Source: Escherichia phage 04086
Direction: 5' to 3' (one strand)
Sequence record: OR842557
Length of the DNA: 64,000 nt
Part shown: positions 7,706 through 20,938 of the stretch, in pieces
Numbering within the stretch: the stretch's first letter is position 1
How the letters are laid out: every line of letters starts with the position of its first letter
Translations under genes and position numbers: made by a program
Notes under the pieces: generated by a model
Databases searched by the model: none
What the model was told of the DNA's origin: nothing
The model's input: only the letters and a program-made list of their open reading frames with translations

Positions 7706-8872
7706 ATGTACAATATTAAGTGTCTGGCTAAATCTGAACAAGAGAAAGTAGTTTCCCTCTATAAATCCGGTAATTATACTCAGCAAGAATTAGCTGACTG
7801 GTATAGTGTTTCGGTTGATACCATTCGTAAAGTCCTGAAAAATGCTGAAGAAGCTAAACGTTCTCAAGTGGCTAAAGAATTAGCCGAATCTCTTAAAAAA
7901 GCACCTACTGTACCTCTTAACGCCCCAACAGAAGTGGTTATTACTGGAAATATCAAAGTAACGGTTCCTAACGAGCCTCGTGTAGTTCCGGTTGATATTA
8001 CTATTGGTGGTTCTCGTCCAGAAATTATCTGGAATGCTAGTTCTAAATTCGTGTCCATCACCGAAGGCCGTACAGTATGGAACACCACTAATAAGAACAA
8101 ACATTTTGATGCCATCGTACAGGCTCTTAAAGAATCTCGTTTTGACGACGCGATTAAACTGATTTCCATTAAAGAAGCTGTTAAGGCCTTCGTCAAAGGT
8201 AACGTTCGTATTGAAGGCGGACGTCTGGTTTATCAAGGTATCGAATTGCGTTCCGGTTTGATTGACCGTATTATCACCTCAATGGAAAATGGCGAAGACT
8301 TCGAATTCTACCTGCCGTTCCTTGAGAACCTGTTAGAAAACCCAAGTGAAAAAGCTGTACAGCGTCTGTTCGACTTCTTGGTCGCGAACGATATCAAAAT
8401 CACTGAAGACGGCCACTTTATCACATGGAAGGTGGTTAACTCCGATTACACCGACTGCCGTACTGGTACGTTTGATAANNNTGAAAAAGCTGTACAGCGT
8501 CTGTTCGACTTCTTGGTCGCGAACGATATCAAAATCACTGAAGACGGCCACTTTATCACATGGAAGGTGGTTAACTCCGATTACACCGACTGCCGTACTG
8601 GTACGTTTGATAACTCACCAGGCAAACCGGTTAAAATGCCTCGTTCACGTGTAAACAATGACGACACAGTAACTTGTTCAAGCGGTCTACACGTTTGCTC
8701 TCGTAGCTATATCGGCGCATTTGGTAATTCAAACAACCGTGTAGTTTCATGTAAAGTTAACCCACGTGATGTTGTTAGTATTCCTGTTGATTATGGCGAT
8801 GCTAAAATGCGCGTATGTTATTATGAAGTTCTGGAAGACGTTACCGATCAGTTTAAATCAGATTTACGTTAA
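7706..8872 (+). CDS. rIIB: rIIB protein; annotated length inflated by a 135-nt in-frame duplicated segment with NNN
   Basis: Position downstream of rIIA; real length about 343 aa after removing the duplicated copy. Confidence 0.85.
   Translation: MYNIKCLAKSEQEKVVSLYKSGNYTQQELADWYSVSVDTIRKVLKNAEEAKRSQVAKELAESLKKAPTVPLNAPTEVVITGNIKVTVPNEPRVVPVDITIGGSRPEIIWNASSKFVSITEGRTVWNTTNKNKHFDAIVQALKESRFDDAIKLISIKEAVKAFVKGNVRIEGGRLVYQGIELRSGLIDRIITSMENGEDFEFYLPFLENLLENPSEKAVQRLFDFLVANDIKITEDGHFITWKVVNSDYTDCRTGTFDXXEKAVQRLFDFLVANDIKITEDGHFITWKVVNSDYTDCRTGTFDNSPGKPVKMPRSRVNNDDTVTCSSGLHVCSRSYIGAFGNSNNRVVSCKVNPRDVVSIPVDYGDAKMRVCYYEVLEDVTDQFKSDLR
8348..8612. repeat. N-marked junction (NNN at 8479-8481) between identical direct copies inside rIIB
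   Basis: 131-nt segment GAAAAAGCTGTACAGCG...GTTTGATAA present twice, separated by NNN. Confidence 0.85.
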
Positions 8873-11982: not shown

Positions 11983-13678
11983 ATGGAATTAACATCTCGT
12001 GGTTTAAAAAGTATTATCGACAACGAAGCATTGGCTTATGCAATGTATACTGTCGAAAACCGAGCCATTCCGAATATGATTGATGGCTTTAAACCTGTAC
12101 AACGTTTTGTAGTGGCTCGTTGTCTTGATATGGCTCGTGGTAATAAAGAAAAATTCCACAAACTCGCTTCTATTGCTGGCGGCGTAGCCGACCTTGGATA
12201 TCACCACGGTGAAGGTTCTGCTCAGGAAGCAGGGGCTTTGATGGCTAACACATGGAATAACAACTATCCATTGTTAGATGGTCAGGGTAACTTTGGTTCC
12301 CGATTGGTTCAAAAAGCTGCGGCCTCTCGTTATATCTTTGCACGTATTGGAAGTAACTTTNGGCTTCTATCGCTGGTGGTGTAGCCGACCTCGGATATCA
12401 CCACGGTGAAGGTTCTGCTCAGGAAGCAGGGGCTTTGATGGCTAACACATGGAATAACAACTATCCATTGTTAGATGGTCAGGGTAACTTTGGTTCCCGA
12501 TTGGTTCAAAAAGCTGCGGCCTCTCGTTATATCTTTGCACGTATTGGAAGTAACTTTGCAAAAGTTTATAAGGACACAGAATATGCTCCGGTTCATGCGG
12601 ATGTCGAACATAAGCCACCGGCTTTTTATCTGCCTATTATTCCTACTGTTCTTCTTAATGGCGTTTCCGGTATTGCAACTGGTTATGCAACTAATATTCT
12701 TCCTCATAGTTTTGATTCTGTTAAGAAAGCTGTATTGCAAGTTCTTCAGGAAAAACGAGTAACAAAACCTAAAGTGGCTTATCCTGAATTCCGTGGTGAA
12801 GTTGTTGAAATTGAACCAGGTAGTTATGAGATTCGTGGAACGTATAAGTTCACATCCCGAACCCAAATGCATATCACGGAAATCCCGTACAAATATGACC
12901 GTGAAACATATGTGGCCAAGATATTAGACCCTCTGGAAGACAAAGGGTATATCACATACGATGACGATTGTGATGAGAATGGTTTCGGCTTCAAGGTTAA
13001 GATTCGTAAAGAATACGAATTGCCTACTGATGAAGATAAGAAACACGAAAAAATCATGAAGGACTTCGGGTTAATCGAACGTCGTTCACAAAACCTGACC
13101 GTCATTAATGAAAAAGGTAAACTTAAGGTTTACGAAGATGCAGTTGAACTGATTCGTGATTTCGTTGAGGTCCGTAAGACCTTTGTACAAAAACGTATTG
13201 ATGGTAAAATCATCGAAACCGAANCATGAAGGACTTCGGGTTAATAGAACGTCGTTCACAAAACCTGACTGTCATTAATGAGAAAGGTAAACTTAAGGTT
13301 TACGAAGATGCAGTTGAACTGATTCGTGATTTCGTTGAGGTCCGTAAGACCTTTGTACAAAAACGTATTGATGGTAAAATCATCGAAACCGAAGAAGCTT
13401 TCAAACTAGCATTGGCTAAAGCCACATTTATCAAAGATGTTATTGATGGTGTAGTGGTTATCCAAGGTAAGACTCGTAAGGTTTTAACCGAAGAATTGGC
13501 CGGTAATAAAGTCTATGGCGAATATGCCGATAAACTAGTGGCCATGAACATTTTCCATATCACTTCTGATGAAGCTAAGAAACTGGCTTTGGAAGCCAAG
13601 GCTAAGAAAGAAGAGCATCAATATTGGAAAACCACTGATGTGGTAACTGAGTATGTTAAAGATTTGGAGGCTCTATGA
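11983..13678 (+). CDS. 52: DNA topoisomerase II medium subunit (GyrA-like); split into three ORFs in the track by two N-junction duplications
   Basis: N-terminal region recalled as similar to T4 gp52; real length about 443 aa after removing duplicated copies. Confidence 0.9.
12165..12557. repeat. N-marked junction (N at 12361) between ~196 bp near-identical copies inside gene 52
   Basis: Second copy starts with 4 synonymous third-position differences then becomes identical. Confidence 0.8.
13055..13393. repeat. N-marked junction (N at 13224) between ~169 bp near-identical copies inside gene 52
   Basis: CATGAAGGACTTCGGGTTAAT...GAAACCGAA repeated; 3 synonymous differences. Confidence 0.8.
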
Positions 13679-17194: not shown

Positions 17195-17737
17195 TTATTT
17201 GAAAAATCTCTTATACCAAGGCTTCCGTTCTTTTTCAGGCCACGCAGGGAATTCACCACCTAAATGCTCATGCTTTTCTAAAAGAGCAAAGAACCGTTTA
17301 AGGTTTTGATGATAGAATTTTTCCTTTTTATCAGCGACTGAAGCTTCAACCATATTACTTAATACCTGGAATTCTTTGTACAATTCTTCAATTTTTCTAT
17401 TACGAATTAAAACACGTTTATAGGTTTCGTCTTCTTTCCAACCATCGTCAGTCCATATGTCAAATTCGCCAGGCTCATCAAAAGCTATACCAACCGGGCT
17501 TCCTATGTCATTTATTAAGATTTCTTCTTTATTAAAAGTCCAGGCACGTTTGCCTCGATGGTCTTCTTCATAAATCCAATCTTGAATGCGTTCGTCAAAT
17601 ACAATCGCATATCCTTCTTTAGGTTCTAAAGGTTTTTTAGCTGTTGAATGGGCAGGAAGGCCAAGACCTTTAACAGGTTTGTAATTTTCTTCTTTGTAAA
17701 ATTCTTTTGTGTCAAAATAAAAATGATAAATTTTCAT
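17195..17737 (-). CDS. 38: Tail-fibre assembly chaperone gp38, T4 type (180 aa)
   Basis: Near-identical to recalled T4 gp38 (MKIYHFYFDTKEFYKEENYKPVKGLGLPAHST...). Confidence 0.95.
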   Translation of the reverse strand: MKIYHFYFDTKEFYKEENYKPVKGLGLPAHSTAKKPLEPKEGYAIVFDERIQDWIYEEDHRGKRAWTFNKEEILINDIGSPVGIAFDEPGEFDIWTDDGWKEDETYKRVLIRNRKIEELYKEFQVLSNMVEASVADKKEKFYHQNLKRFFALLEKHEHLGGEFPAWPEKERKPWYKRFFK

Positions 17738-17740
17738 ATT

Positions 17741-17758
17741 CAGAAGGGGCCGAAGCCC
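17741..17758 (-). other. UUCG-tetraloop hairpin in the 37-38 intergenic spacer
   Basis: - strand reads GGGGCTTCGGCCCC; no T-run follows, so probably an RNA stability or processing element rather than a terminator. Confidence 0.4.
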
Positions 17759-17764
17759 CTCTCC

Positions 17765-20700
17765 TTATGCTAAACGAACAATATAGTTAAAAGCAATGTT
17801 TTTAACCGTGTTTTCTGTATTACCTGTACTATTTATGGTAATGGTATGCCCATGTGAACCAATTGCTACTGAATGGGTGTGAGCACCAATACCTACTGAA
17901 TGGGTGTGAGCACCAATACCTACAGTATGCGCGTGGTTACCCGTAGCGCTAGTAGTTCCTGACCAACTATGAGTATGGGCACCGTCTGAAGAAGTTTTGG
18001 CCATATTCGATGCTGCAGTAGCACCGCTCACGGTTCCAGTGATTTTAGCGTTGGCGTTTGCACCTACACTATTATATCCGTCATAGAATATGTTATTGGG
18101 TACGCCGGCTTGCATCTGAGGGCCTGAACGCGCGTGTTGGTGTGCTCCGGCTGAACTGGTAGTACCACTCACTGTATGGTTATGGTTACCGGTGGTATTA
18201 CTGGTCTTAGTACCATAATCAAAGCTTGAAGATGTTTTAGTGCCATAATCAAAGCTTGATGTGGTTTTAGTACCCAAGTCAGTACTCGAAGCAGATGCGC
18301 CATGGTTATGAGACTTAATACCATCAGCTTCTGCACTCAACACTGCGCGGCCACTTGGTTTACCCTTGATAGTTTGTCCACGCATATCAGGAATAGTACC
18401 AGAAGGATATGCAACAGCAAGCTTAGGATAAGCACCTGTATCAAAGGTCTGACCTTCCATCAAAGCATAACCATTAGGAGGAGTATCCGTTGGCCATGGA
18501 ATTGGGGCTCCAATAGGATAACTTGAAACAATATCAGTTTTAAGTGATTCAATTGTACTGTTTAAGTTAGCAAAGTTACCAGAGCCACCGGTGATATTAC
18601 CATCAGTTCCTAAAGTTGCGGCACCTGCAATAATTTTACCAGGTACGCGGAAGTCACCGGTACGACGGAATTCCCAACTTATATCAGTTCCGGTAGTACT
18701 ATTGCCCTGGTGATAATGGACGCGGAAGTCTCCTTGAGAAATTAAGGTACCAATAGAATAAGTACTATCACCTTGTACGTAACGTTGTTTGACAATAGGA
18801 ATATATTCAGAAGGAGCAGTACGCTCTATATTCATATAAATCGGAGCTCTTACGTTTGCGTCATTCTGGGATGCAAATGAACCAGCTCCTGCTGGGCGTA
18901 CCGTATCAGTACATTCGGCCTCAATATATGTCGACTGCCCCAATTTCATTCTAAAATTGGCATTAATGCGAGAGTTACTGTTTATCGTAGTTAAAGCATT
19001 ATTTTGATCTACTATAAAAGAATCTCTTCCTAATCCAACCATACCATCGTTTAATCCTATTCTCACAGGTCTCAAAGAGCTGTGAATGTCTCCACTTTCG
19101 CCTTCATTTTGATTGGTTGGAAGAATATAAAAGTTACTTTCTGAACGACGGAAAATAGCGCCATATTCAGCATTCCAAATTCTTAATGCATCTGCTGTTC
19201 CACCAATTTTTACTTGTCCGGTAATAGAAGAACCACCTTGGACAAACAAACCGTTAGACATAGTAACATTGCCACCAAAAGAACCTGTACCGGAGGCACT
19301 TATATTTCCAAGGCCTATGATATGGTCTGTTTCAACAGCTCCGTTAAATTTAAAGTTAACTGGACCTACTGTTTGACCTGACGCAGGATTAGTACGTTGA
19401 GCGTAGAAATAATAACCTTGTGAATCTGAAACTTCGAATACAGTTTCTCTATTACCGCCACCTGTATTAAATGAATTACCCCACGCTTTAATAGATATAT
19501 AGTTTTTATTCTGTCCTGCGCGAGTACCAGCGCCCCACAGTATAGTTTTAGTGCCATCTAATGATGTAGGTGCATCAAGTTGAATACCGTCAGCTCTAGC
19601 CCCGGTAAGAAGTACCCCGTTATCAAATTTAATTCTTTGAATAGAAGAAATAGTGCCGTCAGCATAAAGCTGTACATTATTAGCGGCGGTTACCAGTTTA
19701 AGAATACCTGGGTTAAGTTCCATGCCTTCTTGGGTGTTAATATTGGTTTGACCTCTACCGCGGAAATAGTGCGACATTTTTCCGCCAGAGTTATAACCAA
19801 TATGCGTCTGACCATCGCCAGCTGTATTCCCGTCAGCCTGAGTTTGAGCTGATAAAAATGCAGCATTGGTTCCAGGCATAATCCATGTGGTGCCTTGGTC
19901 TTCTGAACGACCAAATAAACCTTTACGAGTACTACGGAAACTATCTGGAGTAATAGAAGCAACTGAATTCCCTGAACCAACTAAATCATAAACACCGGTT
20001 TTTTTGTATGACAGCCCCGTCCCGTTATCGCCTAGAGCTAAATAAACACCGAATCCTAAAGCGGCACCATTACCATAGTCGCTTGACGGGTATCCTTCAG
20101 TCACAGTACCAATGGCCAAGCTATTGCGAACAATCATTCTGCCGTCATTACGAATACCATATAGTTTATATGTTGGTGTATTACCAGACCACCAAGAAAC
20201 CTCATCAGCTTGGCCTAATTGGGCCGTACAAATTTCATGATACATTGTACCACCAGACTTGGCGCGAACTTTACGAAGATAGTTTACACCATTCGTTTCG
20301 CCTGTGCCTGGGTATGTATATTTAACTAATGAATCAGTGTCATATACACCAAATGCTTTGGCATCGTGAATAACTGTATCAGCTGCAATGCGTTTTGTTA
20401 ATAACGCATCCGAAGCTAAAATACGGTTAGCCTGAAATTCACCGCCGTTTATAGAACGGAAATAGAATTCACTATTAGCAGTGCCTTCTGTCCCCTGTTT
20501 AAGCCTAATGCGTAATTCACCAGCATTTGTAGTTTGAGGGCGAGTATATATAACACCACGTTCAGTGCCATCGGCATTTTCAAACCAAAGGTGGGCATTT
20601 GACGTATCGTTTGTTGCTCTTGAATAAAACGAACCCTGTAATGCTCTAAAAGTTTGAGCCGAAATACTCGTGCCTGCTGTAATCGACCCGCTTGTGGAAA

Positions 20701-20938
20701 AGTTTCCAAAATTGTTTAATGGGCCATTAATGCGTAAAGTTCCAGTAATAGTTACATCGCCATCAACTTGTCCACCTTTTGCAAAGCCCAAATCAATAAT
20801 CTGTCCCTGGTCGGACTTGGTAAAAATAGTGCGGTCACGCAAGTTAATAGCCAGTTCGCCTTCATCTAACTGAGCTGCAGTAGGCTTGGCTCCTGGTGTT
20901 TTACTTCTTTTAAATTGTATCGATTTTAAAGTAGCCAT
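17765..20938 (-). CDS. 37: Long tail fibre distal subunit gp37 (1057 aa)
   Basis: Size, position, and C-terminal His-rich HxH repeats ([24 protein letters not shown]) typical of T4-type gp37 tip. Confidence 0.95.

Follow-up and report, generated by a model that had tools for sequence, protein, structure and literature searches.

The tandem repeats in the C-terminal end of gp37, the distal subunit of the long tail fibre of Escherichia phage 04086 (sequence record OR842557), raise the question of what they build in the fibre tip and whether their number bears on host range. The window, i.e., the whole stretch of DNA that was analysed, is 64,000 nt in length. Its gp37 shows 71% identity to T4 gp37 over the full length (756/1064, E = 0) and matches PHROG 1699 (phrog_1699, 'long tail fiber protein distal subunit') with an E-value of 2.3e-264. 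All the testable defining features of T4-type gp37 were found, and the gene is a member of this family. The locus is thus of an already known kind: it carries an ordinary allele of an adhesin that has been studied in depth, and GenBank already contains its closest relative, a gene with 97% identity to it. As stated in the original prediction, the protein is longer than T4 gp37 (1057 aa vs 1026 aa) and gp38 is nearly the same as the T4 chaperone (92% identity).

The genes gp34, gp35, gp36, gp37 and gp38 are arranged in this order on the same strand (Table 1), and a t-type holin follows. Over 20 kb the surrounding genome is nearest to the Dhakaviruses C6 and IME08 (about 94%), while gp37/38 of DCP80 have 97.3% nucleotide identity to gp37/38 here. 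The idea that a T4-type gp37/gp38 cassette is foreign to Dhakaviruses is unsupported, as C6 carries one too. A T2/T6-type system, in which gp38 is an adhesin of about 260 aa (for the family see PMC3157838) and the gp37 C-terminus has no HxH needle, is ruled out by the 180-aa chaperone-type gp38 and the needle-bearing gp37.

Table 1. Features of the long tail fibre locus, with positions counted from the first letter of the window.
Feature	Positions	Strand	Evidence or remark
gp38, T4-type tail-fibre assembly chaperone, 180 aa	17195-17737	minus	92% identity to T4 gp38; phrog_105 'tail fiber assembly', E 1e-41
RNA hairpin GGGGC-UUCG-GCCCC in the gp37-gp38 spacer	17746-17759	minus	fold -15.8 kcal/mol, z = -2.3
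gp37, long tail fibre distal subunit with C-terminal adhesin	17765-20938	minus	ORF, 1057 aa + stop
C-terminal return into collar, aa 1036-1057	17768-17833	minus	near-invariant among homologues; equivalent to T4 1010-1026
Four tandem 27-nt units, GxHxHxVxI, aa 1000-1035	17834-17941	minus	T4 has three
Ascending (return) needle stem strand, aa 988-1031, HxH 4-8	17846-17977	minus	HxH spacings 14, 9, 9, 9
Head (receptor-contacting) cassette, 52 aa between HxH-3 and HxH-4	17978-18133	minus	unrelated to the 34-aa head of T4
Descending (outbound) needle stem strand, aa 877-935, HxH 1-3 (H877, H919, H933)	18134-18310	minus	aligned to 2XGF, 10-aa insertion
Two tandem 30-nt units, 10-aa SSFDYGTKT type, aa 894-913	18200-18259	minus	T4 has one (SSFDYGTK)
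Collar domain, N-terminal part, aa 810-857, equivalent to T4 D10	18368-18511	minus	Pfam PF07484, 41-43 bits, cut-off 24
gp36, 219 aa	20947-21606	minus	ORF; so annotated in matching Dhakavirus records
gp35, 374 aa	21663-22787	minus	ORF; so annotated in matching Dhakavirus records
gp34, 1299 aa	22796-26695	minus	ORF; so annotated in matching Dhakavirus records

Two repeats at the nucleotide level were detected by Tandem Repeats Finder, a 27-nt unit with 2.4 copies at 17858-17923 (94% matches, score 118) and a 30-nt unit with 2.4 copies at 18203-18274 (83% matches, score 109). Within the first, 58 nt (17866-17923) form a perfect tandem of period 27, with an exact 31-nt self-match at offset 27 that is far above chance for 64 kb; in the second, the perfect part of period 30 covers 18213-18259. 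The 27-nt units encode GNHAHTVGI, GAHTHSVGI, GAHTHSVAI and GSHGHTITI, and the second array also takes in a degenerate DLGTKTT unit that precedes the two 30-nt units. Reiterated His boxes and SSFDYGTKT units had been read from the letters before, and both the repeat search and the translations agree with that reading, except that the first unit of the peptide quoted then was given as GAHTHSV and is in fact GNHAHTV. The possibility raised at the same time that T4 has an equal repeat count does not hold (Table 1), and the number of HxH motifs is eight here vs seven in T4. The repeats are not the source of the whole 31-aa surplus over T4, since they account for only 19 aa, the head adds 18 aa (52 vs 34), and small upstream deletions offset part of the sum.

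To locate the repeats within the tip, we relied on the solved structure of the T4 tip (2XGF; Bartual et al. 2010), the only close one, which matches gp37 here with an E-value of 2.7e-93 and a 10-aa insertion exactly at the FDYG unit. In T4 the collar comprises residues 811-881 and 1010-1026, the needle, in which HxH motifs bind seven iron atoms, comprises residues 882-1009, and the receptor-contacting tip lies at about 932-959 (PMC6957217). The chain doubles back at the head, which gives a six-stranded needle, and the number of HxH motifs may scale with needle length (PMC12609058). On these limits, the stretch from HxH-1 to HxH-2 on the outbound strand contains the SSFDYGTKT units, and the GxHxHxVxI units follow HxH-5 on the return strand. 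Both repeats are therefore stem elements outside the receptor-contacting head. The original placement of the repeats in the receptor-binding tip is right in that they belong to the C-terminal tip of a T4-type gp37 followed by gp38, and has to be corrected in that they form the stem and not the head. The correspondence of the His boxes to the metal-coordinating HxH motifs of the T4 needle, also suggested before, is borne out by 2XGF and by the published description (PMC6957217), and with every HxH conserved, gp37 here presumably binds iron as well. The Pfam family PF03335 (Phage_fiber) reached 19.5 bits over five stretches (E = 9e-4, cut-off 20), compared with 39.9 bits for the T4 tail, and many close homologues carry a precomputed match to it.

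The larger repeat counts had been described as expansions. Although the counts do exceed those of T4, the layout is common to all nine other phages compared (TuIa, DCP80, VR25, C6, phage 212, teqhad, FelixPlatter, AndreasVesalius and AdolfPortmann), each of which has HxH spacings of 42-14-head-14-9-9-9, and it is T4 that is short, with spacings of 32-14-37-14-9-9. Matches to the outbound stem were found in 567 phage records, from which an evenly spaced sample was inspected. All 18 T-even-type rows in the sample (H81-H98, at least 81% identity) span 258 nt, which corresponds to two units, while the T4 records span 228 nt, which corresponds to one unit. The GenBank record of teqhad already annotates the 27-nt repeat as a repeat_region. 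Judging by these records, the long stem is the common state and T4 is a short variant.

Among the individual relatives, T4 has the same gene position, collar domain, HxH needle, C-terminal return and gp38 chaperone, with near-identical collar and C-terminus, but it has one stem layer fewer (here +10 aa on the outbound and +9 aa on the return strand) and an unrelated head that is 18 aa shorter. The gp37 of TuIa (X55190; Montag, Hashemolhosseini and Henning 1990) has an identical layout, with eight HxH motifs, spacings of 42-14-55-14-9-9-9, two FDYG units and a head of equal length, but only 28 of the 52 head residues are identical. DCP80, phage 212, teqhad and the BASEL phages FelixPlatter, AndreasVesalius and AdolfPortmann share both the layout and the head family (46-50/52), and differ in that the backbone here is that of a Dhakavirus and not of a Tequatrovirus. 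The Dhakavirus C6 (MW679410) shares the backbone at genus level (94% over 20 kb) and likewise carries a T4-type gp37/gp38 cassette with this stem layout. Its head cassette, however, is unrelated (12/52), and it is only in the stretch enclosed by the inner His boxes that identity falls to about 34%. The same module of collar, HxH needle and head is also found in Stf-like side tail fibres of lambdoid and other enterobacterial prophages and in the long and short tail fibres of Bas63. The 10-, 9- and 14-aa units recur in these fibres, which also obey the coupling rule described below, but they differ in N-terminal shaft and virion context and have from n = 0 to n = 3 layers and from zero to two 14-aa units.

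The relation between the two repeats was analysed with an explicit grammar applied to 351 related proteins (120 word-index matches, 150 representatives at 50% identity, 80 viral-contig loci and reference phages), of which 312 could be parsed; these comprised 184 unique tips. An alternative rule, which equated the head with the widest HxH gap, divided 24 tips wrongly and produced a negative correlation that was spurious, and it was abandoned. The spacing between the first and second HxH motifs (22+10n) predicts n+1 return spacings of 9 aa in 183 of the 184 tips, a figure that overstates the number of independent events because the homologues share ancestry and are not phylogenetically independent. 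One return spacing goes with a spacing of 22 (n = 0, 1 tip), two with 32 (n = 1, 103 tips), three with 41 or 42 (n = 2, 75 tips) and four with 52 (n = 3, 4 tips). The 14-aa unit (HxHxxSGxxxxxGx) is present in 0, 1 or 2 copies and is equal on both strands in 184/184 tips. Seven stem layouts occur among the 184 tips. The layout here (n = 2, one 14-aa unit per strand) is shared by 36/184 tips, 34 of them with the exact spacing of 42. Six head families each hold both n = 1 and n = 2 stems, and the return count shifts in step, which supports at least six coupled changes and means that the coupling arose repeatedly.

The sole breach of the rule is one tip (L005, on the metagenome contig IMGVR_UViG_3300030021_000020) with a spacing of 42 (n = 2) and two return spacings of 9 aa, i.e., two outbound vs three return units. 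It combines a head that is 100% identical to that of TuIa with a unit identical to that of T4, and the junction falls within the His-box array. This tip is either a natural recombinant or a chimeric metagenome assembly, and if it is real, a mismatched stem may be tolerated. The copy numbers being matched in all the other tips, the 27-nt and 30-nt repeats are, on the covariation evidence, one coupled stem module, and the earlier treatment of them as separate expansions is not sustained. An AlphaFold2 monomer model of the last 258 aa, built from a 42-sequence alignment, had a mean pLDDT of 49, a pTM of 0.22 and almost no secondary structure. Because this model is uninformative, it is covariation and the published topology that support the residue-level pairing of the FDYG units with the 9-aa units.

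Taken together, the region is very probably the needle (T4 domain D11) of a T4-type gp37, in which the two repeats are the two halves of one extra stem layer and the head sets the receptor. Each of the three chains would run out from the collar to the small head and then back, which would give a stem in the form of a six-stranded antiparallel barrel, with iron ions in its core that are each bound, in octahedral coordination, by the HxH motifs of the three chains. One layer would consist of a 10-aa SSFDYGTKT unit on the outbound strand and a 9-aa GxHxHxVxI unit on the return strand, the latter supplying the metal site. With two outbound and four return units here vs one and three in T4, the stem would be one layer longer, by an estimated 2.5-3 nm, and eight metal ions per trimer are predicted here vs seven in T4. 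The coupling rule is a consequence of the six-stranded topology and adds modestly to existing knowledge; the relation of HxH number to needle length has already been remarked (PMC12609058).

As for the receptor, identity over the 52 head residues is 50 for DCP80, 49 for phage 212, 46 for FelixPlatter, 28 for TuIa, 12 for C6 and 8 for T4. TuIa uses OmpF (protein Ia), so its receptor may differ from that of the phage here. FelixPlatter (Bas40) has been found OmpC-dependent by experiment, and T-even phages with a gp37-borne adhesin are described as targeting OmpC (PMC8594841). The head identity of 46/52 to FelixPlatter suggests that the primary receptor of the phage here is probably OmpC.

Repeat-number change had been put forward as a plausible route to altered host range. 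In its strongest form, this means that a change in stem repeat number is itself the host-range switch, altering how the tip engages OmpC or LPS, and the near-perfect units are indeed prone to copy-number change. Duplications in the C-terminal region of gp37 reportedly widen the host range of T4; in the work of Tetart and colleagues from 1996, what was duplicated is said to be a small receptor-recognition domain of the adhesin, bounded by His boxes. A duplication of that type does not describe the present gene, which has only one head segment and whose repeated units are stem units of 9-10 aa. Also in favour of such a switch, needle and head both contact OmpC in one of the two docking models that have been published (quoted in PMC5221442). 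However, all mapped OmpC and LPS binding residues of T4 (V941, G943 and A955 for OmpC, T939 and Y953 for LPS) map to the head (PMC5221442). Furthermore, T4 with seven HxH motifs and FelixPlatter with eight both depend on OmpC, and the choice of receptor is therefore not dictated by the number of layers. Each of six head families is found with either stem length, which makes the length of the stem separable from the identity of the head. Tips altered on only one of the two strands are almost absent (1/184), which argues that one-step slippage would usually produce a defective fibre and not a new specificity. The proposed link to host range is thus weak: the number of stem repeats probably does not determine which receptor is used, and the head cassette between HxH-3 and HxH-4 is the more likely determinant of specificity.

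A related idea is that stem length, in whole layers, is a second axis of host adaptation selected apart from the head, which we consider unlikely. If it were true, stem length could set the reach of the head through O-antigen or capsule, and near-perfect repeats might let populations explore it. Stem length would then be changed mostly by recombination at His boxes and rarely by slippage, with matched indels about 300 nt apart, one for each stem strand, being needed for a viable change.

Returning to the extra stem layer, the copy number would most likely have changed by slippage or unequal recombination of near-identical units, together with exchange at the conserved His-box motifs, and only versions in which both strands changed together seem to persist. 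This mutational route is suggested by differences among close relatives. Here the two central 27-nt units agree at 25/27 nt and both encode HTHSV, while the orthologous units of DCP80 differ at five positions and both encode HTHTV; apart from these homogenised units, DCP80 is distinguished by two head substitutions here. Against DCP80, identity stays at about 100% as far as about aa 955 and drops to 86-94% in the return array; against C6, the collar shows about 100%, the head about 34% and the part after the head 84-97%. These patterns fit local homogenisation or re-duplication, together with exchange at conserved His-box motifs. Such exchange is the mechanism that a 1998 paper by Tetart and colleagues names in its title.

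A perfect tandem tract of 58 nt, with copies homogenised in this genome relative to DCP80, might also be read as a contingency locus, at which high-frequency changes in copy number would yield fibres of differing length within a population. This is very improbable: no more than about two copies are perfect, divergence is greater in the partner 30-nt repeat (83% matches), viable change seems to need a simultaneous change about 300 nt away, and the close relatives all have one and the same count. Even less probable is an assembly artefact, by unmerged overlap or mis-expansion of a repeat, although the assembly of the window is imperfect, with 12 genuine unmerged-overlap junctions, because these are N-marked duplications of 110-226 nt with none in 13225-34179 and no N letter across 17195-20938, while the gp37 repeats are only 27 and 30 nt, stay in frame, are imperfect at synonymous sites, obey the coupling rule and, as the original prediction anticipated in arguing from the missing N, are genuine, with equal counts in nine independently sequenced phages, one of them a Sanger-era record.

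For host prediction and fibre engineering, attention should focus on the 52-aa head cassette, which points to OmpC, and not on repeat counts. The matched outbound and return counts (183/184, and 184/184 for the 14-aa units) provide a rule for design and quality control, and in an engineered or assembled gp37-type tip, mismatched counts are a likely sign of misfolding or misassembly.

In addition to the repeats, the spacer between gp37 and gp38 contains an RNA hairpin (Table 1), which is also kept in T4, DCP80, C6 and FelixPlatter.

The number of outbound 10-aa FDYG units matched that of return 9-aa HxH units in 183 unique gp37-type tips, and this coupling rule was broken by only one of the 184, that of L005 (IMGVR_UViG_3300030021_000020). 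At the gp37 3' end of this genome there are 2 outbound units and only 3 return units. The head cassette is 100% identical to the TuIa head, while the return unit adjoining it is identical to a T4 unit. Either recombination took place at the His-box array of L005, or its assembly is chimeric.

By sequence comparison, gp38 of the window is a mosaic, like its gp37. Compared with the loci of DCP80 (L001), Dhakavirus C6 and T4, the gp38 3' end shares 90-96% identity with T4 and 79-87% with DCP80 or C6. In contrast, the window gp37 is nearly identical to that of DCP80. The spacer that separates the gp37 stop codon from the start of gp38 holds a tetraloop hairpin, which is kept in T4, DCP80, C6 and FelixPlatter (see the table), and a terminator is annotated at this site in one related record.

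Features of the gp37-gp38 region and of the assembly junctions, with positions in the window
Feature	Position	Strand	Remark
gp38	17195-17737	-	chaperone gene
GGGGC-UUCG-GCCCC tetraloop hairpin	17746-17759	-	gp37-gp38 spacer, -15.8 kcal/mol
N-marked junctions	2727, 8479-8481, 12361, 13224, 34180, 34404, 36777, 41683, 42463, 46283, 58326, 58561
gp52-like ORF	12435-13229		terminates in X
following ORF	13226-13678		begins with the repeated tail of the gp52-like ORF

A scan of the whole window identified 12 N-marked junctions. At all of them, the 110-226 nt preceding the N reappear shortly downstream, as exemplified by the gp52-like ORF, whose tail is repeated where the following ORF begins. These junctions are unmerged contig overlaps, by which coding sequence has been duplicated.

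The record of DCP80, the closest relative (PQ671644.1), has only 140,978 bp, is labelled Gaprivervirus, and carries gp37/gp38 flanked by DNA ligase and major capsid protein. Because this context is unusual, the record is suggested to be rearranged or misassembled. In phage 212 (L089, PQ765507.1), the annotation appears to be off by one gene: the label 'tail fiber assembly protein' stands on gp37, and 'holin' on the homologue of gp38. Two further records came from a sample taken at even intervals from the 567 phage records matching the outbound stem. The unannotated Escherichia virus TH54 (H81, MT446420.1) encodes an outbound stem whose protein sequence is 100% identical to that of the window, and this phage may be even closer to the window than DCP80. 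The side tail fibre stem of Campylobacter phage CJLB-4 (H99, MW057783.1) is 77% identical to the enterobacterial-type tip of the window, which is unexpected given the Campylobacter host label. Among the tip homologues are bacterial proteins with the tip module (e.g. P0027, P0055 and P0057) that bear the NCBI names 'phage terminase large subunit', 'tape measure protein' or 'short-chain fatty acid transporter'; they probably represent ORFs at contig ends that were fused or mis-called.
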